Source: a bacterium (GTDB lineage Bacteria; Fidelibacterota; Marinisomatia; Marinisomatales; UBA1611). Taken from it: a DNA stretch of 64,000 nucleotides. The stretch covers positions 47,959 to 111,958 of the forward strand of contig SGYO01000002.1 of assembly GCA_004321745.1 (NCBI GenBank). Direction: 5' to 3'. The notes beneath the pieces were generated by a model. It was not told the DNA's origin and did not search any database. It was given only the letters and a program-made list of their open reading frames with translations. Position numbers and translations under genes: made by a program. Position 1 is the first letter of the stretch. Each line of letters opens with the position of its first letter. Shown here piece after piece: positions 24,726 through 61,186 of the stretch.

Positions 24726-24738
24726 TTCTATCTCCTTT

Positions 24739-25104: not shown

Positions 25105-25121
25105 AACGAAAATTAAATAGG

Positions 25122-25134: not shown

Positions 25135-25221
25135 TACAAAAACAATTTTCCTTTATAATTATTTTTTTAAAATGAAAACAGTAAATTGAGAAGAGAATTT
25201 TAATACAATAAAGGAATAATT

Positions 25222-25686
25222 ATGATTGAACTAAATGATAAAGCACCTGAATTCACCCTTAAAAATACAAAAAAAGAAGACGTTTCATTATCTGACTTCA
25301 GTGATAGGTCAGTAGTAATAGCATTTTATCCGGGAGCTTTTACTGGAGTATGCGATACTGAAATGTGTACTTTGCAAGACAACCTAAAGTCTTTCAATGA
25401 TCTTGATGCCACGGTTTTAGGAATTAGCGTTGATTCACCATGGGCAAACGCAGGATTTTCTGGTAAATATGATCTTGAATTTGATTTACTGTCTGATATA
25501 GATAGATCTGTAATCAAATCTTATGATGTTTTATTTGAGGGCCTTGGTGGAATTGAAGGATACACATGCGCAAATAGAGCAGTTTTCATTGTAAAAAATG
25601 GCGATGTAAAGTATAAATGGGTTGCCCCAAGTCCGGGAGAAGAGCCTGATTATGATGAAATTCAAGAAAAATTAAAAGAAATTTAG
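25222..25686 (+). CDS. Peroxiredoxin (AhpC/TSA family, AhpE/Bcp-like)
   Basis: 154 aa with the peroxidatic Cys motif FYPGAFTGVCDTEMC. An AGGA SD lies 7 nt upstream. Confidence 0.8.
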   Translation: MIELNDKAPEFTLKNTKKEDVSLSDFSDRSVVIAFYPGAFTGVCDTEMCTLQDNLKSFNDLDATVLGISVDSPWANAGFSGKYDLEFDLLSDIDRSVIKSYDVLFEGLGGIEGYTCANRAVFIVKNGDVKYKWVAPSPGEEPDYDEIQEKLKEI

Positions 25687-29733: not shown

Positions 29734-29751
29734 AAATAGATCCTATTCAAT

Positions 29752-44218: not shown

Positions 44219-44968
44219 TTATAATCTGGGTATTCTTTTTAAACTACTTTCCCGAAATAATTCAGAATCAACATCCGTATTAATCGATATATAATCAATG
44301 TAAATTTCTGTTTTATGATTTTTTTGGATGTCTTGGACCAAAATTTTTGAAACTAGTTCATAACTCTTCACCATTTTATATGAATATATTTTTACTTTTT
44401 TCAATTCATCATTTTTGCCAAATGATTGTTCTTTGAGAATGGTAAGATTTTTTTTTGAAACCCATAGAGTATGTTTGCTATAAGCACTTTTCAACTCTGG
44501 CTTTGATATAACATTTAAAATATAACAATCGATACCATTAAATAGCTCATCATTTAAACGGTCATAATCATTATCAGAGAGCGCCCTGCTATTTAAATCT
44601 TCATAGCTCAGATCTGAACCCATAAATGAATCATTCATCCTGTTTGAATTTATTCTGCGAATTTTATTAAAGGCAGGCAGCCACATTCGTATTTCATTAT
44701 CTTTGTCTTCATATTCTTTTCTTAAGAAAGATATGCCTCTATCTGCCTTCGGTTTTAAAACCCATATGATCTGATTCTTGCCAATGTTATTTGATTTCGA
44801 TAGTAATATATTTTCACGGGATTTATTTTTTGAATTTGTTAGCACCATGGAAATTCTACTAAATACACTTTGTGGCCTTTCCTTATTATCAAGTTTTTGT
44901 GCTATATCAAGACCAGATTGTGAAAAAGAAATCGTTACGCTACAAAAAAGTGGAACAAACGTCCTCAT
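44219..44968 (-). CDS. Outer-membrane lipoprotein-sorting (LolA-like, PF17131-type) protein, copy 1
   Basis: 249 aa. MWLPAFNKIRRINSNRMNDSFMGSDLSYEDL matches the LolA_like signature. It has an ATGA overlap with the MMPL gene. Confidence 0.65.
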   Translation of the reverse strand: MRTFVPLFCSVTISFSQSGLDIAQKLDNKERPQSVFSRISMVLTNSKNKSRENILLSKSNNIGKNQIIWVLKPKADRGISFLRKEYEDKDNEIRMWLPAFNKIRRINSNRMNDSFMGSDLSYEDLNSRALSDNDYDRLNDELFNGIDCYILNVISKPELKSAYSKHTLWVSKKNLTILKEQSFGKNDELKKVKIYSYKMVKSYELVSKILVQDIQKNHKTEIYIDYISINTDVDSELFRESSLKRIPRL

Positions 44969-47262
44969 AATATTTGTTTTTTTTTCAAAATTTCAGTTAA
45001 AGAAGCTAATAAAGTAAGTGTACCCATAGAAGTTGCAAACATTGCAAAAACCATTAATCCCCCGACAAATTGTACAGGTATGAAATTAGAAAAAATTAAC
45101 GCACCAAAAGACATATTTGAAGCTGAATCAAGTACTATTGGATAACCAACTTCATTGAATATTTCGGTTGAGTTTTTGTCTGATTTACCTTTAGAGCGAT
45201 TAGCTTTAAAATGATATATATAATGAATAGAAAAATCAACGCCCACCCCAATGATAACAGATGATAATAAAGCAGTAACGTGACTTAAATAAATTCCTGA
45301 AAACCCCATTAATCCGAAGTTAATTATTATTGCAGAAAGCAATGGGATAATTGAAAGTATACCCCATGCTATACTTTTAAAAAATAAAGAGGTAATAAAA
45401 CAGATACAGAACAAAGAAGCCACTAGACTTATAATAGAAGATTCTATAACTAAATAAATCAAATCTCTAATAACAACTCCCATTCCTGTAACAGACACAC
45501 TATCAATTATCTCTAAATCATTTACGTGACTATGAATGTGTTCTACAAACGAAATTATTTGGTCAGTGCTCATCATACTACTTAAAGCTGTAATTAGACT
45601 AATATTATAATTATAATCTACTACGGAGTCTAAATCATCGCCATCCCCAGACATTGAATACATGGCAAGTAGATTACTGATTTTATTTCCATTTTTTGGA
45701 ATGGTATTAAACTCAGGATTGTTATCCATTAAAGTAAAATGCATTTGCTTAACAGCATCAGCAATAGAATAAGTAGCATTTATAGATGGATTTTCTTTAA
45801 GTGCTTTTTGAAGCTGTTCAATTTCATATAATACGCCAGGATCTTTTACATCACCTTCAACCCGGACACGGAAATCCATAGTACCTGCCATCTGCTCATC
45901 AATGAAATCTATGCTTTTTCTAAATTCAGTTCCTTTTTTGAAAAAGTTGGCAATATTTACATCTACTTTTACAAACATTAACCCAGAAAAACCAAACAGA
46001 ATGATAATGAGTCCAGTTTTTAATATTTTTAGAGGATTAGGTATTATAACTACTCCAATATTTCTTATTGTTTTTTCAAGGATACTTTCTTTTGATATAG
46101 AAATTGACTCAAGATTCCATTTCTTAAATGATATAGCTGCTGGTAAAAAAGTAACACTAAGTATAAAAGCATATAAAATGCCTATACTTAAACATACACC
46201 ATATCCTAGTAACTGGTTTATTGGGGCAAAGTAGAGTGCTAGAAATGCAGCAATTGTAGTTATACTTGTTAAAAATATTGGCATTAATAACTTATCAATT
46301 GAGGCAGATATAGCCTGCCTAGTTACTTTTCCACTCCTCATTTCTTTAAAAAATCTTGTCACAAAATGAACTCCATCTGAATTAGCAATAGTGAGTAAAA
46401 TAATTGGCATGGAAGAGTTTATTATGGTGAAATAAAAATATTTAGATCCTGTATAATAGGTTATCCAACCCATAACGCCCGCCATCACTATAAGTGACTG
46501 AATTATTATAGAGAATATCAAAAAAACACTAAATATATTTCTAATATTTAGAACAAGTACTCCACACATTAGTCCTAAACCAATAATAATTAAGGTGGAA
46601 ATGTCTTTTTTGATCATTGTTGGCACAGACCCAGTTATATACGCTATGCCGCCATAATGAATATCATAATTTCTAGATAATAGACTATCGCCTACTTGCA
46701 CTACCCTATGCCTTAATATATCATGAGGTACATTGGGTGAAGGTTGAATTATGATATTAAAATAATCTTCATATTTACTAACCATTCTATTTTTAATCGC
46801 AGAGTTAGCATTTACATAATTTGCAATATCTTCAATTGTATGTTCACTTAATTCTCTATTTTTTTGAAGGTCCTCAATTTCAAGAAATCCGTCATTACTA
46901 AAAATTTTAGGAATGTTAGAAATGCTAGTAACTTTTTCAACTTCTTTAATCTTTTCTAACTTTCTAGTAACGTCCCATAATTGAGAAAGCGCTTCTTTAT
47001 TAAAAATATTTTCACCCTCATTACCAAAAGCAACAAAAATAGATTCTGTACTACCAAATTCATTTTGTACTGCATCCCAAGTCATTCTTGATTCCATTTT
47101 TGTTGGTAGCATTGCCATCATATTATCGTCTACTATTATAAAACGAAGACCAGAGCCAATGATAAACGTTAAAAAAATGGGGATAAAAATTGATTTCAGA
47201 GGATTATCTAGGACAATTTTTGAAATCCTAGATTCTTGATATTTACTACCCTCTGCTATCAC
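44965..47262 (-). CDS. MMPL/COG1033-type RND-superfamily exporter, copy 1
   Basis: 765 aa with a GTG start (GTGA overlap with the upstream gene). Two blocks of about 6 TM each follow a large soluble loop, the classic RND/SSD layout. Confidence 0.75.
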   Translation of the reverse strand: MIAEGSKYQESRISKIVLDNPLKSIFIPIFLTFIIGSGLRFIIVDDNMMAMLPTKMESRMTWDAVQNEFGSTESIFVAFGNEGENIFNKEALSQLWDVTRKLEKIKEVEKVTSISNIPKIFSNDGFLEIEDLQKNRELSEHTIEDIANYVNANSAIKNRMVSKYEDYFNIIIQPSPNVPHDILRHRVVQVGDSLLSRNYDIHYGGIAYITGSVPTMIKKDISTLIIIGLGLMCGVLVLNIRNIFSVFLIFSIIIQSLIVMAGVMGWITYYTGSKYFYFTIINSSMPIILLTIANSDGVHFVTRFFKEMRSGKVTRQAISASIDKLLMPIFLTSITTIAAFLALYFAPINQLLGYGVCLSIGILYAFILSVTFLPAAISFKKWNLESISISKESILEKTIRNIGVVIIPNPLKILKTGLIIILFGFSGLMFVKVDVNIANFFKKGTEFRKSIDFIDEQMAGTMDFRVRVEGDVKDPGVLYEIEQLQKALKENPSINATYSIADAVKQMHFTLMDNNPEFNTIPKNGNKISNLLAMYSMSGDGDDLDSVVDYNYNISLITALSSMMSTDQIISFVEHIHSHVNDLEIIDSVSVTGMGVVIRDLIYLVIESSIISLVASLFCICFITSLFFKSIAWGILSIIPLLSAIIINFGLMGFSGIYLSHVTALLSSVIIGVGVDFSIHYIYHFKANRSKGKSDKNSTEIFNEVGYPIVLDSASNMSFGALIFSNFIPVQFVGGLMVFAMFATSMGTLTLLASLTEILKKKQIL

Positions 47263-48734
47263 CGATTATAATTCATTATATTGTAAATGTAAGCCATAAT
47301 ATCTTGAAAATTAACTAATGAATCTTCGTTATAATCTGCTGGTGGTGATTGAGGATAAAACCCGTAATGCATGTCCAAAGCATAAAATAAATCAAATACA
47401 TCAATTTGGGAGTCAAAATTTATGTCCCCAACTGTATAATCTGGGAATGCTGTAGAGTCACCTCCAAAAAATTCAACAGAATACTTTTGTGCTCTTGCAA
47501 TCATAATATTTACACCTGGATATTCATAATCCCATAAAGTATTACCAGCAGAATCAATCTCAAATATCTTTGCATCATCAGCTACAGATATTAATGTGTT
47601 ACCATTTTGTAATCTAAAAGCTCCACTTTGAACATTTGAATGAAATCCTCCCGTGTACATCCACTCTATTTGATCTGGTCCGAAAGGGTCTGTATCATTA
47701 ATGACATAATTTATACTATCTGTATCAAGAGGTGGTACTATTTCAAAAATAGCTGAAGTTAAATTTCCGTAATTATTATTGTATAATATCAAATTACCTG
47801 CACCAGGATATCCCTCTTTGATCCAGTTGATACCATGCTGACTTTCAAGTCTCTGGGATGAATTAGACCCTCGATCATAAGCTGCAGGATTTCCCCAACG
47901 GTACAAGAAGTCGCCTCCTTTCCCAGAATTACCACCTGTGTGACCTGATGCTTCTTCTGTTGTTGTGCTATGATCAATTATATATATCTCATTTTGGTGC
48001 CTAGAGCTAATTACAATCTGATCAAGTAGCGGATTATAGTCAATCGCATTAATATGCATCCAATCAGCATTACTTCCACCAGGACCTCCTCCACCTCCCA
48101 CATCACCATAGTTAATATCCATTAACTCTGGATGCTCTGAAACAACGCCATACCCTGACAAACTCGGATCAGAATCTTGAATCAAATGATCCCATAGGTG
48201 CCACTCCCAAACAATATTAGCACCATTTGGAGGAACTATTTCAAGCTCTAAAATAGCCGTTGACCACATTTCACCTAAAGGATTATTGATAGAAACCCTA
48301 CCCATTGCATAGGCCTCCGTAGCAGATTTTCTTTCCCATACTATTACTAGAACGTTCCCATTGGGAAGTGGCTGGACATCATGATGATGTTGATATGTTT
48401 CGTTAGATATCACGTACTGCCAAATCAGCGTCCCATCCCAAGATATATGGGCAATGCCTCCTCCAACACCGCCAGCACTCATGGTAGGGTTTTCAACTCT
48501 ATATGGATATATAATAGAGCTATCCGCAAGAAGATAAGGCATACTAGCTGCACCTCTACTGTGCTCCCAAGTATGAATTACATCCATATTATTATTTAAT
48601 AGATAGCTTATGCCTCCGGTAGCACCATTAGGCCCGCCACCTGTTGGGGAAAACAATGTATAGCCATTAAATACTTCAGCACTTAAAAATGATAATGTGA
48701 TTATCAACTTTAATAAATACCTGAAGATCATCAT
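47259..48734 (-). CDS. Exported arylsulfotransferase (ASST)-like beta-propeller protein with C-terminal dockerin-like module
   Basis: Track ORF runs to TTG 48755. I prefer ATG 48734 (MMIFRYLLKLIITLSFLSAEV, a signal peptide). ASST-like motifs are YQHHHDVQPLPNGN and DWMHINAIDYN...ISSRHQNEIYIID. The tail GDINFDSQIDVFDL...DYNEDSLVNFQDI forms two dockerin-type Ca loops. Confidence 0.65.
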   Translation of the reverse strand: MMIFRYLLKLIITLSFLSAEVFNGYTLFSPTGGGPNGATGGISYLLNNNMDVIHTWEHSRGAASMPYLLADSSIIYPYRVENPTMSAGGVGGGIAHISWDGTLIWQYVISNETYQHHHDVQPLPNGNVLVIVWERKSATEAYAMGRVSINNPLGEMWSTAILELEIVPPNGANIVWEWHLWDHLIQDSDPSLSGYGVVSEHPELMDINYGDVGGGGGPGGSNADWMHINAIDYNPLLDQIVISSRHQNEIYIIDHSTTTEEASGHTGGNSGKGGDFLYRWGNPAAYDRGSNSSQRLESQHGINWIKEGYPGAGNLILYNNNYGNLTSAIFEIVPPLDTDSINYVINDTDPFGPDQIEWMYTGGFHSNVQSGAFRLQNGNTLISVADDAKIFEIDSAGNTLWDYEYPGVNIMIARAQKYSVEFFGGDSTAFPDYTVGDINFDSQIDVFDLFYALDMHYGFYPQSPPADYNEDSLVNFQDIMAYIYNIMNYNR

Positions 48735-48803
48735 ATATATCCAATAACTTCTCAAAATAATTTAGGTGAGCATTTAAATACTCATTACATAACTATAAGT
48801 CTC

Positions 48804-48866
48804 TTAACGATTAAAATAGTTAAGTAAATTATGTACATAAGTTAATACAATTATGGTAATCGTTAA
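48804..48866. promoter_or_regulatory. Nested inverted repeats in the divergent promoter region (candidate operator)
   Basis: TTAACGATTA (48804-48813) and TAATCGTTAA (48857-48866) form a perfect 10-bp inverted repeat. They are nearly centred on the palindrome ATGTACAT (48831-48838). Confidence 0.4.
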
Positions 48867-48890
48867 TTTTCCTAAATCAACATTTCAAAG

Positions 48891-49967
48891 ATGAACAGAA
48901 GACTAAAAGCATATAAAATTATCAGTAAGACATTCGGAGTTTGGCTGTCTACCATTTTTACTGGTTTATTGCTCACTTTGATGAAATTTCTTGTTTCATT
49001 TTTTTTATTTATGGACAAAATATTTATTAATGTTCCAAACAATTCAATTTTTAAAAAGCCAATAATAATCGTTGGAAATCCAAGGTCTGGCACCACTTTT
49101 TTGCAAAGGTATTTGATCAATAATGGACTAGGTACTGGGTCTCAGCTGTGGCAATTGATTTATCCCTCTATTTTACTACAAAAAATAATAAAACCATTTT
49201 TACCTCTGTTAGAAAAAATAAGTCCTGCTAGACACCATTCAACTGAAGCACATAAAACAAGCCTGACTTCTGTTGAGACTGATGATGTTAGTCTTTTATT
49301 TAGGCATTTTGATGGTTTTTTTTTGTATGGGTTTATTTTTGCTTTTGACGAGGAAGATTTATTTGAATTTTTTGACCCAATGTTTCGAGACACAAACGTT
49401 AGAGATTTTGAATGGTTTGAAAACATTTGGAAAAACAACTCATATGAACATAACGCCCCATATATTGGAAAGCTATTCTCGCTAAGTGCTAAACTGCCTG
49501 CATTTCAAAAAAAATTTCCTGATTCTAAAGTACTGTATATGATTAGAGACCCAATAGATGTTATACCTTCAGGATTAAGCTTAGTTACTGGAGTTCTTGA
49601 CAAAAGGTTTGGCTTTTGGAACTTGGAAAAAAATATTCAATCTAGATATATAAAAAGACTTTACAATGCGCTTGTGACTTTATTAATTCGTTTTCATCAT
49701 GATTGGGTCAATGACAATATTGATAAATCAAAAGTTTTGATTATTAAGTATGATAAAATGATGTCCAATTTTGAAATAATAATGAATGATATTTTTTCAT
49801 TTCTAGATCACAATCCATCAAAAAAATTAATCAATGACATACAAAAGACTGCTGAAAAGCAAAAGATTTATAAGAGCAAGCACAAGTATGATCTTAAGAA
49901 ATTTGGACTCTCAGAGAAAAAAATTAAAAAAGATTGTCTTCCAATTTATGAGACATTTTTAACATAA
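48891..49967 (+). CDS. Membrane-anchored PAPS-dependent sulfotransferase family protein
   Basis: 358 aa with N-terminal TM segments. The 5'-PSB loop is VGNPRSGTTFLQRYL and the 3'-PB motif is MIRDPIDVIPS. Confidence 0.75.
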   Translation: MNRRLKAYKIISKTFGVWLSTIFTGLLLTLMKFLVSFFLFMDKIFINVPNNSIFKKPIIIVGNPRSGTTFLQRYLINNGLGTGSQLWQLIYPSILLQKIIKPFLPLLEKISPARHHSTEAHKTSLTSVETDDVSLLFRHFDGFFLYGFIFAFDEEDLFEFFDPMFRDTNVRDFEWFENIWKNNSYEHNAPYIGKLFSLSAKLPAFQKKFPDSKVLYMIRDPIDVIPSGLSLVTGVLDKRFGFWNLEKNIQSRYIKRLYNALVTLLIRFHHDWVNDNIDKSKVLIIKYDKMMSNFEIIMNDIFSFLDHNPSKKLINDIQKTAEKQKIYKSKHKYDLKKFGLSEKKIKKDCLPIYETFLT

Positions 49968-50578
49968 TGACCGTATATAGAGCAAAGTTTTTTATAATAA
50001 TATTTTTTCTATCAAACTTCATTATTTGTCAGAATGAAAAGTATATGAGTAATTATGAAAATCTTAATGAATGGGAAACAATTCAAGAAACCGATGTTAA
50101 TTTAAAATGGACTAACCAAAATGGTTTTCCTATTGTAAAAGCTACAGCAAAGATGCCATTTCCTATAGATTCAATTTCTAAAATAATCGAAGATGTTAAA
50201 AACTATCCTAATGTGTTTAGAAGAGTTCATGAAGTTCAAATTCTTGATAAAAACATCATCCATATAATGATTGATATGCCATTTTTACTTTCTGATCGCG
50301 ATTATGTAATTCAATATTCTAAAAATAAATCAAAAACCACATGGAAGTTCTCATTCAATGCTATAGATCATGGAAGTGCTCCTGCCACAGAAAAATATGT
50401 TAGATTAATAAATGCATTTGGTAAATGGGAATTAAGTCCAACAAATGAAAATGAAACATTGCTAGTTTATACATGGAATGGAGAACTTTTAGGAGATTTT
50501 CCTGAATTTGCTTTAAAAAGAGCATGGAAGACACAAGGGAATGAAATAATACACTGGATTAAAGATGAGCTTAAATAA
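49967..50578 (+). CDS. Exported START/SRPBCC-like lipid-binding protein
   Basis: 203 aa with a signal peptide. The START-like pattern includes W..i....v.l, PFLLSDRDYVIQY, GKWEL and GDFPEFALKRAW. It has a TAATG overlap with the sulfotransferase gene. Confidence 0.55.
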   Translation: MTVYRAKFFIIIFFLSNFIICQNEKYMSNYENLNEWETIQETDVNLKWTNQNGFPIVKATAKMPFPIDSISKIIEDVKNYPNVFRRVHEVQILDKNIIHIMIDMPFLLSDRDYVIQYSKNKSKTTWKFSFNAIDHGSAPATEKYVRLINAFGKWELSPTNENETLLVYTWNGELLGDFPEFALKRAWKTQGNEIIHWIKDELK

Positions 50579-52004
50579 AATAATAATGTTAATCCTTTTA
50601 TTAAGTATCGCACATAGTCAATCTAAAAATGCATTTAACGGTTTTCTAGATTTTAATTATATATCACGAATCTCAGATGGATCAATAATTAATCTACCCT
50701 ATAGATTATTTAGTTTAAGGATTGACCATGAAAATGAAGATATTTTGATAAAATCAAACTTGGTCATTGAACATAAAATAAGGGAAGAAACCCATTTTTT
50801 ATCTAATGAATCTCCATCAGATTTTAATCTTGATTTAAGAGAACTTTATTTGCAATTATTTACTTCATGGGGGGAATTAAAAATTGGAAAAATCATTCAT
50901 ACCTGGGGTAATGTCGATGAAAATAGTCCTGTTGATATTGTTAGTCCATATGACTACTATTTTACTTTTGATTCAGGAATTGATAAAAAAATGGGGATTT
51001 TCTCATCTGCTATAGATATTTATGCTATTAATTATAAGCTTGGGTTTACTTTTTCTCCCATTCACAATACTCATAGGACCCCTCTAGAAAAAGATGATTT
51101 TCCAATAAAACTGCCAACATATCCTTATGAAAATGAATTTATGAAAATTAGTGGGAGCCCTATAGAATATGGTTTTTATGGCTTGAAGACACTAAGCAAA
51201 GGAGATATCTCTATTCATTATTTTAATGGATATGATCGACTGTTTAATCTGTCAGGTGTGAATGTATATGCGAATGGCCCTGATAAAAGTTTTTCAATCA
51301 TAGATATAATATATAGTTACAGAAAAACAAAAATGCTTGGAGTAGGTACTAATCTTTTTGTCGGCAATGCAACATTTAGAGGAGATGCCGCATTTTTTAA
51401 CACATCAGATGTGAATGGCGAAGATAAATTTCTTGAGAGAAAAAGCTCTTATCTGCCAACAATATATGACTCATTACATTATTCTTACCCTTTAAAAGAG
51501 GAAGTAAATTATTTCCAAGCAACATTACAGTTTGACATCGAATTACCCTTTGATATTCAATTTACAGGTCAATTTTTTACTTATGATACCTTAGATTATA
51601 AATCTGACAGTCTACCCCTTGATGAGGACATATCCATTCCAAACTTAGAAATCACAGCTGATGAATTGAACCCAAAAAATATTTTTACACCAGGATATGG
51701 GTCATCGATTGGAATTTTAACAAAAAAAGCAGCAATTATATCACTCCAAAAAAGCTTTTTAAATGATCAACTGAATTTTAAACTATCATCGCTCTTAGAT
51801 ATTGATAATAAGAACTATCACAATTCTATACCAGGAATTATACTCTCCCTAGAAACATCATACAGATTAAATGACAACCTTATTATTGACATTGGTTATA
51901 CAAAAATAACAGGAGATAGTAATCATCCTCTAGGCGAGGATTATCGATTAAATATTATGGAAGATTTTTCACATTTCCGTACAAATTTAAAATATAACTT
52001 TTAG
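50565..52004 (+). CDS. Outer-membrane beta-barrel protein (DUF1302-like, tentative)
   Basis: 479 aa with a signal peptide. It shows alternating beta-strand patterning, LRELYLQLFTSWGELKIGKIIHTWGNVDE and a C-terminal ...NLKYNF aromatic terminus. Confidence 0.5.
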   Translation: MSLNKIIMLILLLSIAHSQSKNAFNGFLDFNYISRISDGSIINLPYRLFSLRIDHENEDILIKSNLVIEHKIREETHFLSNESPSDFNLDLRELYLQLFTSWGELKIGKIIHTWGNVDENSPVDIVSPYDYYFTFDSGIDKKMGIFSSAIDIYAINYKLGFTFSPIHNTHRTPLEKDDFPIKLPTYPYENEFMKISGSPIEYGFYGLKTLSKGDISIHYFNGYDRLFNLSGVNVYANGPDKSFSIIDIIYSYRKTKMLGVGTNLFVGNATFRGDAAFFNTSDVNGEDKFLERKSSYLPTIYDSLHYSYPLKEEVNYFQATLQFDIELPFDIQFTGQFFTYDTLDYKSDSLPLDEDISIPNLEITADELNPKNIFTPGYGSSIGILTKKAAIISLQKSFLNDQLNFKLSSLLDIDNKNYHNSIPGIILSLETSYRLNDNLIIDIGYTKITGDSNHPLGEDYRLNIMEDFSHFRTNLKYNF

Positions 52005-52017
52005 TGGATATTATGAA

Positions 52018-52980
52018 ATGAGTATTCAAATAATAGGATCTGGATTTTATTTACCCCCATACATTGAAAACTCAAAAACTACTGGTCGAATCATTCGTAA
52101 AAATGAAGATTGGATCATTTCAAAAACTGGAGTAAAAGAAAGAAGAATTTCAAAAATCGACGTTGATAAGATGGGTGCAATAGCTGCCGAAAAAGCTTTA
52201 AATGGTAATGGCTCTCCTGATTTAATTATCAATGCCTCAGGAGTACCAAAGCAAACAATACCTGATACATCCGTCTTTTTTCAAAAAGAGCTTGGTCTAA
52301 AATCGATCCCCTGTTTCAGTATTCATGGTACATGCTTATCATTTCTAATAGCATTAAACAATGCAAGATCACTAATTAACACAAACGTATATGAAAGAAT
52401 TTTGATTATCTCATCAGATCGAGGAAGTTTAGGTAGAAACCCCAAAGAACCTGAAAGTGCTGCACTATTAGGAGATGCTGCAGCAGCAATACTTGTTGAA
52501 AAAGGAAAATCAGATTCAAATAATTTTCATTACTGGAAAATGAATACGTGGTCTAATGATGCTGCATTGACTGAAGTTAGAGGTGGCGGTACATTCAAGC
52601 ATCCACTCGACCCGAACACAAAAATTGAAGATAATTTGTTTACGATGGATGGACCAGCAGTATATAAATCCGCGAGAAAAAAGGCCTATAGAATGGTTTT
52701 AGAAACATTTAAGAACACCAAATTCAATAAAGAAGATATCGATTGGCTAATTCCACATCAAGCTTCCCTTAAAGCAATAAATGCATATAGTGAATATGGA
52801 AATTTTGATATGAATAAAATTATAAATATAGTGCCGACAACTGGAAATTGCGTAGCCGCTTCAATGCCTTTAGCATTAGCTACAGCAATACATGATGGAA
52901 GAATTCAAAGAGGAGACCTGTTATACTTTATTGGCACTGGAGCAGGTCTATCAATGGCTTGCGCTTTACTAACCTACTAG
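52018..52980 (+). CDS. KAS III (FabH)-like condensing enzyme
   Basis: 320 aa. The N-terminus IIGSGFYLPP...DWIISKTGVKERRI is FabH-like. Triad positions are Cys (HGTCLSF), His (IPHQAS) and Asn (TGNCVAASMP). Confidence 0.75.
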   Translation: MSIQIIGSGFYLPPYIENSKTTGRIIRKNEDWIISKTGVKERRISKIDVDKMGAIAAEKALNGNGSPDLIINASGVPKQTIPDTSVFFQKELGLKSIPCFSIHGTCLSFLIALNNARSLINTNVYERILIISSDRGSLGRNPKEPESAALLGDAAAAILVEKGKSDSNNFHYWKMNTWSNDAALTEVRGGGTFKHPLDPNTKIEDNLFTMDGPAVYKSARKKAYRMVLETFKNTKFNKEDIDWLIPHQASLKAINAYSEYGNFDMNKIINIVPTTGNCVAASMPLALATAIHDGRIQRGDLLYFIGTGAGLSMACALLTY

Positions 52981-52982
52981 TA

Positions 52983-54050: not shown

Positions 54051-54051
54051 T

Positions 54052-56127
54052 TCATTTAATAAACATAATTTTCTTTATTTGATTGTTAAATGGTTTATTT
54101 AACTTCAAAAAATAAATACCAGAGGAAAAACCCGCGCCATCCCAATTAGAGTAAAAAGTCTCTGAAAGATCATTTAAAGGGATACTATGAATTATTTTAC
54201 CACTTATGTCGTATATATCAATTTTTAAACCAACTTCATAAATATCTTTGACACCAATTTTTATATTTGAGTTGAATGGGTTTGGAAATGGTTCTAATAA
54301 AGTTGCCTCAATAGATTTGTTTGGCAGTTCATGAGCTGTTGATAAAGAATTTAATTTTAGATCAAAACTATACGTTCTAGCTAGGGATACTTTTTTTGAA
54401 GGGATTATTAATAAATCAAAACTACTATTAATTGCAGAATTACTAGTTATACCATTAAAAGTAATAGTTCCCGCAGACCCTGGCTCTATTTCTATGGAAC
54501 CACTAAAATCTTCGAACCAATCTAATTGCTCTATAAACTGATAATTAAAGGTTTCAGTTATTGATCCCTCATTTTTTAATGTAAATGAAATTTCAGCATT
54601 TCCCAATGGGAGATTTACAGCTGGCTGAGACTCATAGCCTTCAACATTGTTTTCCGAAAGTTCATCAACTATTAGGCTAAATGCGATTGGATATAAACTA
54701 GGTATTCGGTTAGCACGGTAAACTGCGCAAATTGGCTCACATAAATTATAATTCCCTCTCCAAACCTCCTCACCAATGTTTGTAACCTCTAATGAAGTAC
54801 CATTTCCTCCAACTGTTGTAATTAAATAATTTCCATTATCAAGTTTTTGAGCATTCCCTGAAGCAAAACCAAAAAGTTCCTCAGGTAGAGAGTATTCCCA
54901 CACTATTTGAGCTTGATTATTATTTAAACTAATCTCCAATACTCTCGAAGTCGGATATTCAGTACCTAAAAAACTTTCACTTAAATTACCATTATCAAAT
55001 GTTACAATATTTCCATTATCTAGTATTTGAAGTCCATGCTGAAAACTAAATCCAATATCATTACCCATAGAAACATCCCCTGATGGCATATCTCTGCCCA
55101 TGTTCCAAATTATATCACCACTGGGATAAGATATTTTTGTTATTCTAGATAAATGTCTAGTTGATATATATAAAGCACTTTCTTGCTCAGAAAAAATTAA
55201 AGCATTGACATGCGTCCAATCGTATTTTTGAAAACCAGTAGATGAGGATAACCACGTACCTCCAAGTTCGTCAAAATCGTCCATTGAAAAATGATCAAAT
55301 ACGCTCCATGTCCAAACTATTTCTTTTGTATCTTTATCCCATTCTATTAATTTATCCCCTACCCAAGGAAATTCAACAGTAATTCCGTTAGCAGTAAATC
55401 CAAAGTCTTGATAATCACCGGTCCAAGGACCGATAGGAATCGGACCCAACTGAGATGTTTCAACTATGCCTATATAATTACCATTCGGAAGTTTAATTAG
55501 GTCATGATGGAGGAACTGATCATTTGGCTCCTCCCAAACAAAATTGGTGTTTAGACTAAATTCTATCCCAGGAAGATTGTGTTCTAATGAATTGTCAGAA
55601 TAACATCCTAAAAGATCTAGGGCATCATTTGTATTATAATAAACAATGTTATTTTCGCCTGTGTTCCAAATTTCTCTACCATTAAAGTCGATCATAGCAC
55701 TATAGTAGTTATAAAATGAACTAAAAATAGTAATACCATGGTTTATATTATTTTCATCATAAATAATTGCAGTCGCATTCGAACGTTTTGAACCAGTTGA
55801 GAAGCTGAATGAATCGATCCAATCACTAAAGAACGGAGAATCATAGTTCGGACGCACTCTCCAATAATAATTTGAATCCCAATCTATACTTTCTTCTTCT
55901 ATAAAGACTAACGAGGTGACAGTAGCAACTTTGATGATTTCATCAAACTGAGAATCATAAGCTATCTCTACATTATAACTACTTGCTCCGGGTACTTGAT
56001 CCCATTCAAAAAGAACATGAATATAGTTAAGCTCGCTGTTGTTAGGAGGATTAATTAAGCCCGCAGTTAATGTCGTAAAAAATAAAGTATGAATGAAAAA
56101 AAGATAAAAAGTGCAATACCTAATCAT
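54052..56127 (-). CDS. Exported ASST-like beta-propeller protein with T9SS C-terminal sorting domain
   Basis: I prefer ATG 56127 (MIRYCTFYLFF...), 4 nt after the sat/cysC stop; the track start is 56151. ASST-like motifs are FLHHDLIKLPNGN and DWTHVNALIF...ISTRHLSRITKI. The tail is FPNPFNSNIKI...GIYFLKLN...KKIMFIK. Confidence 0.65.
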   Translation of the reverse strand: MIRYCTFYLFFIHTLFFTTLTAGLINPPNNSELNYIHVLFEWDQVPGASSYNVEIAYDSQFDEIIKVATVTSLVFIEEESIDWDSNYYWRVRPNYDSPFFSDWIDSFSFSTGSKRSNATAIIYDENNINHGITIFSSFYNYYSAMIDFNGREIWNTGENNIVYYNTNDALDLLGCYSDNSLEHNLPGIEFSLNTNFVWEEPNDQFLHHDLIKLPNGNYIGIVETSQLGPIPIGPWTGDYQDFGFTANGITVEFPWVGDKLIEWDKDTKEIVWTWSVFDHFSMDDFDELGGTWLSSSTGFQKYDWTHVNALIFSEQESALYISTRHLSRITKISYPSGDIIWNMGRDMPSGDVSMGNDIGFSFQHGLQILDNGNIVTFDNGNLSESFLGTEYPTSRVLEISLNNNQAQIVWEYSLPEELFGFASGNAQKLDNGNYLITTVGGNGTSLEVTNIGEEVWRGNYNLCEPICAVYRANRIPSLYPIAFSLIVDELSENNVEGYESQPAVNLPLGNAEISFTLKNEGSITETFNYQFIEQLDWFEDFSGSIEIEPGSAGTITFNGITSNSAINSSFDLLIIPSKKVSLARTYSFDLKLNSLSTAHELPNKSIEATLLEPFPNPFNSNIKIGVKDIYEVGLKIDIYDISGKIIHSIPLNDLSETFYSNWDGAGFSSGIYFLKLNKPFNNQIKKIMFIK

Positions 56128-56131
56128 CAAT

Positions 56132-57787
56132 TCATTCAGAAATAAAACCACGTTCTTCTATATAGTTATAAATTTTTTCTACAAGTTTTTCAGGCTCAAC
56201 TCCACTAGAATCAATTTTCAACTCAGCTTTTATTGGGTCTTCATAAGGGTCAGAAATTCCAGTAAACTCTTTTAATTTCCCTTCCCTAGCTAACTTGTAT
56301 AAACCTTTTACATCTCTTTCTTCACATTTTTCTAACGAAGTTGCAACATGTACCTCAATGTATCCACCCAGTTTAGAAATCAATTTCCTATTATAATTTC
56401 TATCGCTTTCATATGGAGCAATTGGAGCGCAAATAGCAATACCTCCATTTTTTGTTATCTCACTGGCAACATAACCTATACGTTTAACATTTATAGATCT
56501 ATGTTCCTTTGAAAATCCTAATTCGCTTGATAAATGTGTTCTAATGATATCGCCATCTAATAAAGTAACAGGCCTACTACCTTTTTCAAGAAGCTTTACT
56601 AAAAGCCCATTGGCTAAAGTAGATTTACCAGAGCCAGACAAACCCGTAAAGAAGACTGTAAATCCTCTTTTTGAGACTGGAGGACGAGATTTTTGGAGTT
56701 CATTTGCGACCTCACTATAGGTAAACCAACTTGGTATATCTTTGCCTTTATCAAGCAAATCTCTCAGCTCTGTACCAGAAACAGTTTTATAATTAGTATC
56801 CTTCGCAATTTCATCAATTGGGATATAACGATTCTCATCAGGTAAATATACTAAAAATTTAAAGGGAACCATTTTTATACCAATTTCTTGCTCATACTGA
56901 CTAAGTATTTCTTGAGCGGCATAAGGGCCATAAAATGGTTTGCCGTTGCTATCAAGCCCAGGGCCAGCATGATCTCTACCAACAATGAAATGAGAACATC
57001 CATAATTTTTTCTAACAATGGCATGCCATAGAGCTTCTCGAGGGCCTGCCATGCGCATAGCTAGGGGAATTAAACTTAAAAAAGCTTTATCATTTGGGTA
57101 TTTGCTTAAAACGTGCTTGTAACATCTTACTCTAGTATAATGATCAACATCTCCAGGTTTAGTCATCCCTACTACAGGATGAATTAAAAGGTTTGCATCT
57201 AACTCATCAATCGCCCTAAGCGTCATCTCAACATGAGCTTTGTGTAGAGGATTACGTGTTTGAAAAGCTACAATATTTGACCATCCCAATTCTTTGAATT
57301 TTTTCTTTAGCGATTTAGGGTCATGACGAATTTCTTTATAATCATAATGATTTGGTTTGCTTACGGCTCTTATTTTGCCTCCAACATAAATTGGATTGCT
57401 TTGATTCAATAGGTAATCTACCCCTGGATGAGTATTATCAGTGGTCCCATAAACTAACATACATTCTTTTTTTAGATCAGGGCCCCAAATATCTTCAATA
57501 TCAATTATAGCAATCGAGAAACCTTCCCTATCTTTCAAAGTTAATTTATCACCAGGATTTATTTTTCTTGAAAACTCCTTATTGACATCTAAGTTAATCG
57601 GAATCGGCCAAAGGCTACCATTTTTTAGGCGCATACTTAATAATACACTTTCGTAATCATCTTTATTGAGAAAACAATTTAAAGGCGCAAAACCTCCATT
57701 AAGAATCATCTCTAAATCACATATCTGACGCTCATTCAGCACCCAGGATTTATAATTCAATGATTCATTTTTTAATTCAATATTCAC
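56132..57787 (-). CDS. sat: Bifunctional sulfate adenylyltransferase / adenylylsulfate kinase (PAPS synthase, Sat-CysC fusion)
   Basis: 551 aa with a GTG start. The ATP sulfurylase part has QTRNPLHKAH and VGRDHAG motifs. The C-terminal APS kinase part has the P-loop FTGLSGSGKSTLA. Confidence 0.9.
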   Translation of the reverse strand: MNIELKNESLNYKSWVLNERQICDLEMILNGGFAPLNCFLNKDDYESVLLSMRLKNGSLWPIPINLDVNKEFSRKINPGDKLTLKDREGFSIAIIDIEDIWGPDLKKECMLVYGTTDNTHPGVDYLLNQSNPIYVGGKIRAVSKPNHYDYKEIRHDPKSLKKKFKELGWSNIVAFQTRNPLHKAHVEMTLRAIDELDANLLIHPVVGMTKPGDVDHYTRVRCYKHVLSKYPNDKAFLSLIPLAMRMAGPREALWHAIVRKNYGCSHFIVGRDHAGPGLDSNGKPFYGPYAAQEILSQYEQEIGIKMVPFKFLVYLPDENRYIPIDEIAKDTNYKTVSGTELRDLLDKGKDIPSWFTYSEVANELQKSRPPVSKRGFTVFFTGLSGSGKSTLANGLLVKLLEKGSRPVTLLDGDIIRTHLSSELGFSKEHRSINVKRIGYVASEITKNGGIAICAPIAPYESDRNYNRKLISKLGGYIEVHVATSLEKCEERDVKGLYKLAREGKLKEFTGISDPYEDPIKAELKIDSSGVEPEKLVEKIYNYIEERGFISE

Positions 57788-57804
57788 TAGATACCTTTTA
57801 CTTA

Positions 57805-58584
57805 CTATTGAGCAGCTATTAAAAATGATTCCGAAAAAACAGCATCATCTAAATCAACATCTGGTTTAAAAGCTTGAACGTTCATAATGGTATAATTCCC
57901 ATTTGGTCTTTTCATCTCTAATAATTTAGGAATCCAATATTTTCCACTTTTTACAATATCTTTAAAAAATAATGTTTTCTCTAATATTAAATTTTCTGAA
58001 AAGTATTCTACTTTGCGAACACGAAATATTTTTGTATCTACAAATATTTTTTTACTTTTATAACTACTATCTTTTACTGGTGTAGATAAAATTATTGCAC
58101 AACTATTCCCATTAATTATTTCTTGACCCTCATATTGGAAAATATCATCATTAATGTTTCTGTTTTCTAGATCCTCATATATGAAATCAGTGGACATAAA
58201 TGATTTTGATTTTTCTTTGGATTTTACTTTTTTTGCCATTTTTAATTTTGGAAGAAAAAACCATTGATCGGAGGATCCATCTTCTTTCGTCCAACTTAGC
58301 AAACCCGTACCTTTCACAGATTTTGGTTCTAAAAATTTGACCAAGGACTTTTGAAAATATTCATTATTCTTATAACGTTTTTCATATCTAATGAAAGCTC
58401 TAGATTTTCTTTTTTCCTTATTAGCTCTTTTTCGAACTATTTCTAGTTTTACTTCCGAAATTGAAGTTGCAGGATTAGGTTGACTAATAACCTTTTCCAT
58501 GATCTTTTTTGCTTTAAAATCATCATCATTTGCGATCAAAAAACTAAAAAGGATTAGAAGATAAAATGATTTATGGGCCATCAT
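57805..58584 (-). CDS. Outer-membrane lipoprotein-sorting (LolA-like) protein, copy 2
   Basis: 259 aa with a signal peptide. WFFLPKLKMAKKVKSKEKSKSFMSTDFIYEDL is the same signature as copy 1. Confidence 0.65.
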   Translation of the reverse strand: MMAHKSFYLLILFSFLIANDDDFKAKKIMEKVISQPNPATSISEVKLEIVRKRANKEKRKSRAFIRYEKRYKNNEYFQKSLVKFLEPKSVKGTGLLSWTKEDGSSDQWFFLPKLKMAKKVKSKEKSKSFMSTDFIYEDLENRNINDDIFQYEGQEIINGNSCAIILSTPVKDSSYKSKKIFVDTKIFRVRKVEYFSENLILEKTLFFKDIVKSGKYWIPKLLEMKRPNGNYTIMNVQAFKPDVDLDDAVFSESFLIAAQ

Positions 58585-58891
58585 TTTTTTCTTCTTTAAT
58601 AAAGAGTAAACCTATCGGTGTAAAAATCAAACTAATTAAAGCCACCACAAGATAATCTTGACGCTGTTTAAACTCTGATATTCCAGCTAATTGTAAACAT
58701 GAAAAGACATATATTATCAAAATAAGATCTGTGTTACTTCTCCCCCATAAAACTAGGGTTCTTAGATTAAAATCTTTAATGCTAGCAGAACCATCTATAT
58801 CCACATAATAATTATAGATCCATAATATTAATAATATTAAAGTTACACACAACATTATTAAACTGACTAGTTTATCATTTGAGTTTTTCAT
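58571..58891 (-). CDS. Small 3-TM membrane protein, hypothetical (MMPL accessory?)
   Basis: 106 aa. It starts immediately after the MMPL stop and overlaps the LolA-like gene by 14 nt. It has no counterpart in the copy-1 module. Confidence 0.4.
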   Translation of the reverse strand: MKNSNDKLVSLIMLCVTLILLILWIYNYYVDIDGSASIKDFNLRTLVLWGRSNTDLILIIYVFSCLQLAGISEFKQRQDYLVVALISLIFTPIGLLFIKEEKNDGP

Positions 58892-61186
58892 TTATTTATA
58901 TAAAAATTTTGGTTTAACTAAGCTAACAAGCGCTGGGAGGATGGCCATCCCACCAATCAAACAGAACCCAATTGATGCCATAATTAATATACTGAACTCT
59001 TTTAAAGGCATGAATACAGAAAACATTAAAACTGAAAAGCCAACGATTACAGAAATGCCATTAAATAATATTCCTTTCCCTGATACTTTCATTGTATTAG
59101 AAATTGCATCATCCAAATTGTCCCCTTCCCTTAGATGTTCTCGGAGATGCCAAAGAAAATGTACAGAATAGTCTATACCAACACCAACTAAAATGCATGT
59201 TAGCAGAGATGTAGTCATATTAAGTGGAATACTAAAATTACCCAATAAGCCAAAAATAAGTATTACAGCCAGCAGCATTGGAAGGCTTGCTAGTACCCCA
59301 CCAATTAATGATCTAAATACTAACGCCATAATACTAAATAAAATTATTGAAGCTATTCCTAAGCTAATGATTTGACCTCTTATTACAGAATGACTTACTG
59401 CACCCAATAATGCTGCCGGGCCCGACAGCATTGGATTAATAGGCTGGCCGTCATAATAGTTTGATTTTATATAATCCTCAGTATCGTCTACTAGGGCCAT
59501 TAGATCTACGGTACTAACTTTTTTTATTCGAACGAATCCCTGAGAATAATTTGGGTCGTCAGTATCATTTAATATTAGATCAAAATCATTATCCTCTCCC
59601 GCAATAGAATATAAAAACATATATTGTTCAATAAGCTCTCGGCTTGAAGGTATCTTTAAGGAATCAGGGTTACCATTATGAAAGGAATAATGCATTTTTT
59701 TTACAACATCTGCAATAGAGTATGTCGAACTAACGATGCTATTTTTTTCTTTTATGTGAGACATCAATTTGTCGATATGCTCTAATGATAAGGGATCATA
59801 AATATCACCCTCAATTAATATATTAAGTTGAGTTGAGCCTCCAAAAACTTCACTAATTACTGCGCTTGATTTTCTAATTTTTGAATCTTTGGGAAAGTAG
59901 TTGTCTGGAACAGTATCAATTGTTATATCTCTTATGCCAAAAGAAAAAATAAACATTATCGAGAATAAAACAGCTAAAAAAGGCACTCTATTCTTGACAA
60001 AAAACTTCCCCCAATTGATTAAAAAATTATTTACTGTTTCTAAGCTTTTTTCTTTTCCTAGGTATGTTGGCCTTGGAACTAAAATAAGAATCGCAGGTAT
60101 TAGAAGAAGACTCAAGAAGAACGAAACTGCAATACCAAAGGATACTAATAATCCAATTTCTCTAACCTTAGAAAGCTCATGAGTAACTAAGCTTAGGAAA
60201 CTAATTACAGTAGTAAATCCAGCGAGGAAAATAGGCATTCCCAACCTTTTCATAGTTCTCTTTAAAATTTCGACTCTATCTAAGTTTAAATCTAATTTGG
60301 TAAACTCATAATAATGAGATATGATATGAATACCATAATTATTTGCAATTGCAATAAGCATAATTGGAATTAAACCGCCTATAATTGGAACGGATATGTC
60401 CAACCAAGCCATTAATCCAAACGTCCATAAAATGGAAAACCCAACTACAAACAAGGGCAAAAAAGTTCCAGTCCAACTTCTAAAGCTTAAAATTAATAGA
60501 AGTATCATTAAACCTAATGCTATAGGTGTAAATGTTCTCATATCTCTTTTTACACTGTCAATAGACTCTGCAGCAGAAATAATTGAACTAGCGATATAAA
60601 TATCTTCAATTCCTTTAAAACTGTCAATGATTTGAAATAAGTTTTCTCTAAATGCTATTTCATCAAAATCAGTAGGGGCGGTAATTTGTGCAATAAAACA
60701 CATAATATTTAGTTCAGCGGATATAAGACTACCGATAATTTCACTAGCCTGAATTTTCTCAATGAAAGCAGATGTCTCCAATGAATCTTCAGGTATTTTG
60801 TTAAGTATTTTTTGTATTTCAAAGCCACCATCATCTGGAACAATATATTTTTGACTATAAATAGAAGCGACCCTGCTTACGGAAGGAATGTTTACTAAAG
60901 AATCATGTAAAGATGAATATTTACCCAAGATTTGCTCTGAAATTAAATTTTCAGATTCTACTGCAATTACCACAATCTCATTACTGCTAAAAAGGTCTTC
61001 AGCAAGCTCCATATTCTTTACAATTTTATGATCTTTAGGTACCAAAGATCTCAGACCTGGATCGATTTTCAACTCATTTATCTTCCACATAAAAAAAATG
61101 GTTAATAGCAATGTAAATGATATTATCGAACGCGGATAATGAGCATCTAACAAAAATAATCGTTTTATTATATTCTTGAGATTCAT
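58892..61186 (-). CDS. MMPL/COG1033-type RND-superfamily exporter, copy 2
   Basis: 764 aa with the same 2 x (soluble loop + ~6 TM) layout as copy 1 and nearly identical length. Confidence 0.75.
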   Translation of the reverse strand: MNLKNIIKRLFLLDAHYPRSIISFTLLLTIFFMWKINELKIDPGLRSLVPKDHKIVKNMELAEDLFSSNEIVVIAVESENLISEQILGKYSSLHDSLVNIPSVSRVASIYSQKYIVPDDGGFEIQKILNKIPEDSLETSAFIEKIQASEIIGSLISAELNIMCFIAQITAPTDFDEIAFRENLFQIIDSFKGIEDIYIASSIISAAESIDSVKRDMRTFTPIALGLMILLLILSFRSWTGTFLPLFVVGFSILWTFGLMAWLDISVPIIGGLIPIMLIAIANNYGIHIISHYYEFTKLDLNLDRVEILKRTMKRLGMPIFLAGFTTVISFLSLVTHELSKVREIGLLVSFGIAVSFFLSLLLIPAILILVPRPTYLGKEKSLETVNNFLINWGKFFVKNRVPFLAVLFSIMFIFSFGIRDITIDTVPDNYFPKDSKIRKSSAVISEVFGGSTQLNILIEGDIYDPLSLEHIDKLMSHIKEKNSIVSSTYSIADVVKKMHYSFHNGNPDSLKIPSSRELIEQYMFLYSIAGEDNDFDLILNDTDDPNYSQGFVRIKKVSTVDLMALVDDTEDYIKSNYYDGQPINPMLSGPAALLGAVSHSVIRGQIISLGIASIILFSIMALVFRSLIGGVLASLPMLLAVILIFGLLGNFSIPLNMTTSLLTCILVGVGIDYSVHFLWHLREHLREGDNLDDAISNTMKVSGKGILFNGISVIVGFSVLMFSVFMPLKEFSILIMASIGFCLIGGMAILPALVSLVKPKFLYK

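Follow-up and report, generated by a model that had tools for sequence, protein, structure and literature searches.

We analysed a 64,000-nucleotide stretch of a Marinimicrobia genome (contig SGYO01000002.1, positions 47,959 to 111,958 of the forward strand; hereafter the window) and identified at positions 44219-61186 a conserved gene island that may encode a two-step sulfation of an extracytoplasmic target. On this reading, to which we assign a probability of about 0.45, a relay resembling that of the caprazamycin (Cpz) pathway would operate across a Gram-negative envelope: a sulfotransferase dependent on 3'-phosphoadenosine 5'-phosphosulfate (PAPS) would charge a carrier, and exported, PAPS-independent arylsulfate sulfotransferases (ASSTs) would discharge it. 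A preliminary description made from the sequence alone had counted fifteen consecutive genes in the region; open reading frame (ORF) calling returned 13, all at the coordinates first given. They form three blocks, comprising three genes on the minus strand (block A, genes A1 to A3), four on the plus strand (block B, B1 to B4) and six on the minus strand (block C, C1 to C6), and block C ends 2 nt from block B. The GTGA (A1/A2) and ATGA (A2/A3) overlaps were read in the sequence as described, and profile searches against Pfam and NCBIfam confirmed almost all of the domains that had been proposed, those of B2 and B3 by way of their orthologues.

Conservation of the island was examined in a scan with one genome per species, which detected relatives of the B1 sulfotransferase in 239 genomes. 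The best 80 loci all came from Marinimicrobia (53-93% identity), and every B1 homologue with a named source was from Candidatus Marinimicrobia or Neomarinimicrobiota. The 13 window proteins were mapped onto the best 80 loci together with further metagenome loci, and presence was counted in the 30 related loci whose flanks extended 8 kb or more on each side. This analysis revealed the divergent ASST (A1), the START protein (B2) and the DUF1302-like barrel (B3) in 30/30 loci, the ASST with a type IX secretion system (T9SS) tail (C5) in 29/30, and the leucine-rich-repeat (LRR) protein with a T9SS tail (C6) in 26/30, always adjoining C5. The ketosynthase (B4) was present in 23/30 loci, an MMPL pump in 19/30, a LolA-like protein in 19/30, the protein with three transmembrane segments (3-TM; C2) in 12/30 and the PAPS synthase Sat-CysC (C4) in 4/30. 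The START gene lay directly 3' of the sulfotransferase gene in 75/75 species-level loci, and the ASST gene was divergent from it and upstream in 64/67. The fixed core is therefore ASST, sulfotransferase, START protein and DUF1302-like barrel, with the pumps and the PAPS synthase variable. With one ASST in 30/30 loci, the tailed ASST in 29/30 and the pumps in 19/30, the two sulfotransferase types are linked more tightly to each other than to the pumps. The set that had been stressed at first (sat-cysC, sulfotransferase, MMPL and LolA-like genes) is not the core, given sat-cysC in 4/30 and MMPL and LolA-like genes in 19/30. The earlier interpretation was thus supported in part: it stressed the wrong core, but its idea of a sulfuryl relay was strengthened by the Cpz4-like ASSTs and the MxnB/CorB-like ketosynthase described below.

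Several features of the related loci are recorded here in their own right. Operon A was longer in many other Marinimicrobia (loci L001-L003, e.g. L001:1-9143), where it contained genes for a TetR regulator, an MMPL pump, a FabH-like ketosynthase, a LolA_like protein, a Plug/TonB-receptor-like protein, a 363-aa protein and a second DUF1302-like barrel. One 6.8-kb contig with the typical ASST/sulfotransferase/START/barrel order (L043, CAXRJK010000049.1) is filed under a Winogradskyella metagenome-assembled genome, which more likely reflects a binning error than transfer to Bacteroidota. FG-GAP proteins, T9SS-tailed or free-standing, were also found inside related sulfation loci; in the window, a 1269-aa FG-GAP/ASPIC-UnbV repeat protein is encoded at 3988-7797 (minus strand) beside a thioredoxin-like protein.

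The sulfotransferase B1 (48891-49967, plus strand), of the mycobacterial Stf1/Stf9 kind, scored above the Pfam gathering cut-offs for PF13469 (62.2 bits versus 27; E = 1e-16) and PF00685 (40 versus 22 bits). Loss of the PAPS-binding residues had been set beforehand as a reason to abandon the sulfation hypothesis; on alignment of 17 sequences, no variation was seen in the loop that binds the 5'-phosphosulfate (P64-R-S-G-T-T69) or in the motif for the 3'-phosphate (R219/P221/S227). Both motifs were also largely kept in distant homologues (25-40% identical), four of which depart from the strict 5' loop. With its binding motifs intact, B1 is predicted to catalyse PAPS-dependent sulfuryl transfer. 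An exact look-up of the B1 sequence returned no identical entry on record, and since a sequence search against solved structures gave only a marginal match to Stf9, a fold search was used. The AlphaFold2 model (predicted local distance difference test score, pLDDT, of 76) had Stf9 (2Z6V; E = 1e-8, template-modelling score, TM, of 0.62) and Stf1 (2ZQ5; 6e-7) as its best Foldseek matches. The N-terminal helix of B1 (residues 18-45) is hydrophobic in Marinimicrobia, with an embedded conserved Arg/Lys and then an invariant D42, and lies below the transmembrane threshold in many distant homologues. A simple transmembrane anchor was rejected because of the invariant residues in the helix and its non-hydrophobic character in many distant homologues. 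Of the earlier term membrane-anchored, the conserved hydrophobic N-terminal helix stands and the transmembrane anchor is not proven; we read the helix as a putative conserved membrane- or lipid-facing element.

The two ASSTs were assigned by Pfam profile. A1 (47259-48755, minus strand; separated from B1 by a 135-bp divergent intergenic region at 48756-48890) matched Arylsulfotrans PF05935 at 70.9 bits (1.4e-19) and C5 (54052-56151, minus strand), a predicted propeller with an extra N-terminal domain, matched it at 79.9 bits (2.4e-22), the gathering cut-off being 24.2; C5 also matched PF14269 (3e-20) and Por_Secre_tail (2e-9). In a profile of 24 ASST-like proteins, A1 H234, N236, R252 and H307 aligned with H356, N358, R374 and the sulfo-histidine H436 of Escherichia coli AssT, all of them active-site residues listed for that enzyme (PMC13426309). 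The equivalents of A1 H234, N236 and R252 were invariant or nearly so across the ASST-like sets, the sulfuryl-carrying histidine (A1 H307) was invariant in sets of 24 and 21 sequences, and C5 keeps the catalytic His, Asn, Arg and His. The H-H-D motif of A1 (H124-H125-D126) was likewise invariant and is a candidate counterpart of AssT H252, in a region that the alignment with 3ELQ stops short of. The best solved match of both ASSTs was Cpz4 (9KF4/9KF6), with a profile E-value of 5e-18 versus 3e-10 for E. coli AssT; C5 alone matched 9KF4 at 1.6e-14. These entries were recognised as Cpz4 of caprazamycin biosynthesis from the description given by the fold search, and a literature search for '9KF4' found no paper.

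The N-termini of A1 and C5 are signal-like, and C5 in addition carries its T9SS sorting domain, as does the adjoining C6 (52983-54050, minus strand; LRR_4 and LRR_8 above the Pfam cut-offs, Por_Secre_tail 9e-12). The dockerin-like tail ascribed to A1 is weak in the window copy (E = 0.009) and is borne out by Pfam PF00404 in many orthologues. Its two D-x-N-x-D calcium-loop-like repeats (47259-47450) correspond to a type I dockerin in many of these orthologues, with no cohesin partner evident in the window. The A1 start is probably M8 (48734), the start in near-identical database proteins, with the called TTG lying 7 codons upstream. The C5 start is ambiguous; the mechanically called GTG overlaps Sat-CysC by 20 nt (56132-56151).

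The invariance of the ASSTs bears on a rival explanation, in which a sulfated lipid is the exported end product in the manner of sulfolipid-1 or sulfomenaquinone. Here the β-ketoacyl-acyl carrier protein synthase III (KAS III) and the sulfotransferase would build the lipid, the MMPL, LolA-like, START and DUF1302 proteins would place it in the outer membrane, and the part of the ASSTs would be limited to remodelling, trimming or recycling its sulfate, unless they have another substrate altogether. The B1 fold, nearest to mycobacterial Stf9 and Stf1, agrees with this, and one orthologue has been named a Stf3-type sulfomenaquinone sulfotransferase by the Joint Genome Institute. The pumps are of the MMPL/HAE3 type, and MmpL8 exports sulfolipid together with a small membrane partner (PMC3318749); START and LolA-like carriers would also suit a membrane lipid. 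Such a product leaves unexplained, however, why at least two catalytically intact ASSTs are the tightest partners of the sulfotransferase (30/30 and 29/30 versus 19/30 for the pumps), and why ASSTs turn up again next to distant homologues of the sulfotransferase in loci lacking an MMPL gene. We consider an end-product lipid unlikely.

The recurrence was examined beyond the phylum by a HMMER scan of cluster representatives, which recovered full-length B1 homologues of 24-41% identity whose alignment was used to scan metagenome contigs. The resulting distant class comprised 38 loci with a guanine-plus-cytosine (GC) content from 28% to 73%. CysN-CysC fusions were found beside the distant sulfotransferases in 9 loci, often followed by a DHHA1 protein. 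ASSTs were encoded in 9 loci, 15 copies in all, and the catalytic His was retained in 12/12. A ketosynthase of the B4 type (38-50% identical to B4) was encoded directly upstream of the sulfotransferase in seven distant loci, and the other neighbours included sulfate transporters, LolA_like + DUF1302 + KAS trios, and AHSA1/SRPBCC and FadL-type proteins. The reassembly of the same families around the sulfotransferase in unrelated genomes is strong evidence for functional coupling. The gene association, for which conservation had been proposed as a check, is kept in related loci and recurs outside the phylum, and chance adjacency was rejected on these grounds. One 35% GC metagenome contig (L097:3411-18840) encodes five ASST paralogues of 715-960 aa around a ketosynthase/sulfotransferase/CysC trio. 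In high-GC loci (L090, L120, L126, L127, L151, L158) a DHHA1 protein of 320-328 aa is often directly upstream of the sulfotransferase, and in several it is placed between CysN-CysC and the sulfotransferase; it is a candidate 3'-phosphoadenosine 5'-phosphate (PAP) phosphatase recycling the by-product of sulfation.

The PAPS synthase C4 (56132-57787, minus strand) is a fused ATP sulfurylase-adenosine 5'-phosphosulfate (APS) kinase, with matches to PUA_2 (5e-44), ATP-sulfurylase (6e-84) and APS_kinase (1e-56). Since the PAPS enzyme lacks a cleavable signal and the ASSTs have signal-like N-termini, a donor linking the two must cross the inner membrane. Relatives of C4 (74-77% identical) were always found between a LolA-like gene and a tailed ASST and never beside cysH, so that the concern that cysH or cysIJ might be the usual neighbours of this sat-cysC was not borne out. 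As had been described, no cysH or sulfite reductase was found among 46 scanned ORFs of the window, a scan that passed over a small number of short ORFs (100-160 aa) at 14035-17214 and 24306-25686. A role in sulfur assimilation was rejected on these two observations. A transporter of the Na_sulph_symp/DASS family (2e-50) is encoded at 28849-31164 (minus strand), 13 kb from the locus and beside a universal stress protein; it could import sulfate for PAPS synthesis, and the family also carries dicarboxylates. A Na_sulph_symp gene was also seen in one distant sulfotransferase locus.

The condensing enzyme B4 (52018-52980, plus strand; ACP_syn_III_C and ACP_syn_III) had MxnB (4V2P; 3.7e-49, 171 bits, 35% identity end to end) and CorB (2e-48, 168 bits) as its best solved relatives, compared with 2e-40 and 142 bits for the best FabH. 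It fell under every FabH cut-off of NCBIfam (TIGR00747, 195 versus 292; PRK09352, 210 versus 249; PRK07204, 263 versus 402). Its triad C106/H247/N277 was invariant, and an RGGG insertion is common to B4, MxnB and CorB. B4 was 28% identical to an E. coli FabH sequence entered by hand, and the other ketosynthase, in the operon A position of related loci, was 45-46% identical to the same sequence; the hand-entered FabH was 30% identical to MxnB, in agreement with the published 29%. An identification of B4 as the housekeeping FabH was rejected because of the failed cut-offs and the separate FabH-like paralogue in related loci. MxnB and CorB are ketosynthases that close alpha-pyrone rings (PMC5724707), and a single KAS III-like enzyme suffices to form dialkyl-pyrones from fatty-acyl thioesters (PMC4578411). 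A 3-hydroxyacyl-CoA dehydrogenase gene (42930-44198, plus strand), convergent with the LolA-like gene A3, was syntenic in 14/30 related loci; the enzyme is a possible source of 3-ketoacyl-CoA for a ketosynthase that forms pyrones, or else the synteny reflects mere conserved gene order.

It could be argued that these genes are neighbours by ancestry only, with Sat-CysC assimilatory, B4 a housekeeping FabH and the transport modules general lipid carriers. Sat-cysC, KAS and pump genes are each missing from some related loci, and many of them share synteny with the window in the housekeeping flanks too (3HCDH, thiamin pyrophosphokinase), which speaks for this explanation. We nevertheless regard it as very improbable: the same families gather around distant homologues in contigs that differ widely in GC, the ORFs scanned nearby included neither cysH nor a sulfite reductase, and B4 fails the FabH cut-offs while a separate FabH-like KAS is present in related loci.

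The remaining genes encode carrier and export-type proteins. The two HAE3/MMPL-type RND (resistance-nodulation-division) transporters, A2 (44965-47262, minus strand; PF03176 5.6e-25, TIGR00921 6e-53, about 12 hydrophobic segments) and C1 (58892-61186, minus strand; PF03176 2.8e-44, Sterol-sensing 1e-10, TIGR00921 3.5e-78), were above the Pfam cut-off for MMPL, and their TIGR00921 scores were below the trusted cut-off of that subfamily. The LolA_like periplasmic carriers A3 (44219-44968, minus strand; TP_0789/DUF1329-related) and C3 (57805-58584, minus strand) matched PF17131 at 3.8e-43 and 2.4e-45, respectively; A3 also gave a weak DUF1329 match, and C3 had solved relatives in 9TP6, 3BK5 and 4Z48 (E = 7e-25 to 2e-20). 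Between the MMPL and LolA-like genes of operon C lies C2 (58571-58891, minus strand), a 106-aa protein with three hydrophobic segments and no Pfam or NCBIfam family above cut-off, which always held this position and was present together with C1 and C3 in 12/12 loci.

The START-domain (SRPBCC) lipid-binding protein B2 (49967-50578, plus strand; 203 aa) has a signal-like N-terminus and no Pfam or NCBIfam match above threshold itself; START PF01852 was matched by 10/15 of its orthologues (best 7.5e-10), and the orthologue profile matched the solved START protein 3QSZ at 6e-9. Similarly, the predicted outer-membrane barrel B3 (50565-52004, plus strand; 479 aa), with a signal peptide and a C-terminal Phe, gave no direct Pfam or NCBIfam match and was 28-34% identical to paralogues that weakly match PF06980 (best 6e-6); DUF1302 was matched by 8/19 of the B3 orthologues and paralogues. 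For the START, LolA-like, HAE3 and DUF1302 families, AmeABCD (hydrophobe efflux), HpnN and MmpL (lipid transport) provide precedents of hydrophobic cargo (PMC6394551, PMC3318749).

AmeABCD, a monoterpene efflux system built from a DUF1302 protein, a DUF1329 LolA-like protein and an HAE3 pump (PMC6394551), raises a further explanation, detoxification and efflux of hydrophobic algal phenolics or terpenoids as a bacterial version of phase II conjugation and phase III efflux. In such a scheme the ASSTs would sulfate at the surface while the PAPS enzyme works inside, and the HAE3, LolA-like and DUF1302 proteins would expel the product. ASSTs accept many phenols (PMC13426309), and some related loci encode a TetR regulator and a TonB-dependent-receptor-like Plug protein. 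The surface ASSTs would still need an external sulfate donor, a biosynthetic ketosynthase linked to the sulfotransferase in several lineages and a PAPS synthase or CysN-CysC fit poorly, and no regulator of the xenobiotic-sensing type was found in the window. Taken together, these points make detoxification quite improbable, more so than the end-product lipid.

The sulfuryl relay that we favour would proceed in five steps, with compartments as predicted from N-termini and family membership. PAPS would be made in the cytoplasm by Sat-CysC, judging from domain homology, and in most relatives by CysN-CysC or another enzyme encoded elsewhere. The product of B4 is probably a small, hydrophobic carrier molecule whose acidic hydroxyl is of the enol or phenol type, for example an alkyl-pyrone. 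B1, positioned at the inner face of the membrane by its hydrophobic helix, would move the sulfate from PAPS to this putative substrate. The sulfated carrier would then travel outward through the HAE3/MMPL pumps, their LolA-like partners and the 3-TM protein, the START protein and the DUF1302 barrel, a route proposed from the roles of these families. Finally, the exported Cpz4-like ASSTs would load the sulfuryl group onto their conserved His and pass it to a surface acceptor; one of these ASSTs is dockerin-tailed and the other T9SS-sorted, beside the LRR surface protein. The data establish which genes are present and conserved, their motifs and their predicted compartments. What the carrier is, how it leaves the cell, whether it acts as sulfate donor and which acceptor receives the sulfate are what we infer in this scheme, and the product may or may not be the lipid that the preliminary description supposed. 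In its most specific form the proposal is that a sulfated, membrane-soluble enol or pyrone stands in for PAPS as a portable donor in Marinimicrobia and in some bacteria unrelated to them. It would be loaded with sulfate in the cytoplasm, leave by way of lipid-type carriers and be unloaded by ASSTs at the surface; this we put forward tentatively, as somewhat less probable than the relay in general.

Several observations weigh against the relay. B4 is absent from 7/30 loci, the pumps and LolA-like genes from 11/30 and sat-cysC from 26/30; under the model, the corresponding steps in those genomes would have to be supplied from elsewhere. Should the B1 helix truly span the membrane with its N-terminus inside, the catalytic domain would lie in the periplasm, away from PAPS. 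The margin of the MxnB match of B4 over FabH is modest (171 versus 142 bits), and for MxnB/CorB no residue is known that would mark pyrone formation (PMC4578411, PMC5724707). No type III polyketide synthase (PKS) is encoded in the locus, where B4 is the sole condensing enzyme, and B1 gave no match to Cpz8 by tblastn at E ≤ 10 and a hidden Markov model E-value of 0.5, the Cpz8 DNA having been machine-read from a supplement with reading errors. Without Cpz8 similarity or a type III PKS, the donor half of the locus would be analogous, not homologous, to that of Cpz. The structure model of A1 is of low confidence (pLDDT 64), and for the six-bladed beta-propeller expected of an ASST its best Foldseek matches, Cpz4 and AssT, reached a TM of only 0.3-0.4.

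The surroundings of the locus were also scanned. Its flanks are housekeeping genes. A scan of the locus for sigma-70 promoters and terminators gave counts no higher than in shuffled sequence and is uninformative for an AT-rich, non-proteobacterial genome, and tRNA and Rfam scans of the window gave no matches. Elsewhere in the window (8562-10905, 17516-22118 and 36144-37334) there is a cluster of peptidoglycan-peptide-processing enzymes, comprising an S13 DD-carboxypeptidase, two S66 LD-carboxypeptidases, an AmiA-like amidase, a beta-lactamase-like protein, an M55 D-aminopeptidase and an M19 membrane dipeptidase. These recall the muropeptide scavenging reported for the cultured relative Fidelibacter multiformis (PMC11652737).

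According to a 2026 review, what most bacterial ASSTs act on in nature and what they do for the cell are unknown, caprazamycin biosynthesis being the exception for donors, acceptors and roles (PMC13426309). ASSTs are widely used as biocatalysts, and the locus puts two of them beside a candidate donor pathway and export machinery, so that the question of ASST function becomes directly testable through it. If the relay is real, it would reveal the long-sought natural donor of bacterial ASSTs and provide a Gram-negative route to sulfate cell-surface and external targets where no PAPS exists. It would also give a function to START, LolA-like (PF17131) and DUF1302 proteins, and introduce a new carrier and a new sink into organic sulfur cycling by a highly abundant dark-ocean phylum; the carrier could serve biocatalysis as a cheap enzymatic sulfate donor. 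Our literature search found no paper linking this phylum to sulfotransferases and no link between sulfotransferases and LolA/RND export outside mycobacteria. Gut Bacteroides have a PAPS-linked cholesterol sulfotransferase cluster, which is not known to include ASSTs or envelope carriers.

We then compared the locus with described systems. The M. tuberculosis sulfolipid pathways (Stf0/Pks2/PapA/MmpL8/Sap for sulfolipid-1, SL-1; Stf3 for sulfomenaquinone) share with it the Stf-type fold, MMPL-family RND pumps with a small membrane partner and a lipid-building condensing enzyme in one locus (PMC3318749). In contrast, the Marinimicrobia locus belongs to a Gram-negative envelope with LolA-like, START and DUF1302 proteins, has no PKS or Pap acyltransferase, and its invariant ASSTs have no mycobacterial counterpart; to the extent tested, C2 is no homologue of Gap/Sap. 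AmeABCD and the Pseudomonas DUF1302/DUF1329/BNR/RND cassettes resemble it in combining an HAE3 pump, a LolA-superfamily protein and a barrel, in the locus of probable DUF1302 type (PMC6394551). Those cassettes are not linked to sulfation, whereas here no BNR/COG4447 periplasmic domain was detected in the 13 locus proteins, the LolA-like proteins are of the short PF17131 type, and the barrel lies in the sulfotransferase operon and not with the pumps.

E. coli AssT (3ELQ) is of the same Pfam family as the locus ASSTs and extracytoplasmic, and its H356, N358, R374 and H436 are kept in them. It is distant (3e-10), its DsbL/DsbI partners are not encoded in the locus, and its natural donor is unknown (PMC13426309), whereas the locus carries a candidate donor pathway alongside. 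MxnB and CorB, with which PpyS is functionally grouped as a pyrone-forming ketosynthase, align with B4 end to end and share its Cys-His-Asn triad and RGGG insertion; they act, however, on carrier-protein-bound chains of large PKS and nonribosomal peptide synthetase lines, and the locus encodes neither lines of this kind nor carrier proteins.

The closest parallel is the caprazamycin pathway of Streptomyces, in which the PAPS-dependent Cpz8 sulfates triketide pyrones that Cpz4 then uses as donors (PMC4257720, PMC6731281). This Cpz6 (type III PKS)/Cpz8/Cpz4 precedent overturns the earlier claim that no described system has such a composition in so far as it concerns a relay from a PAPS sulfotransferase to an ASST; the claim holds for the envelope-spanning version only. 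Like the caprazamycin pathway, the locus brings together genes for a PAPS-dependent sulfotransferase and for a PAPS-independent ASST (30/30 related and 9 distant loci); the ASSTs have Cpz4 as their closest solved relative, and a condensing enzyme beside the sulfotransferase could make a pyrone-type carrier. The two differ in that B1 has no detectable similarity to Cpz8, which at about 213 aa lacks the N-terminal extension of B1, and in that an MxnB/CorB-like KAS III takes the place of a type III PKS as condensing enzyme. The locus ASSTs are also exported, to judge from their signal peptides, dockerin tail and T9SS domain, START, LolA-like, HAE3 and DUF1302 transport genes accompany them, and the locus contains no antibiotic pathway. 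The comparison suggests that the locus combines a Cpz-type relay with machinery for the export of hydrophobic compounds, in an envelope-spanning pathway that is newly proposed here.

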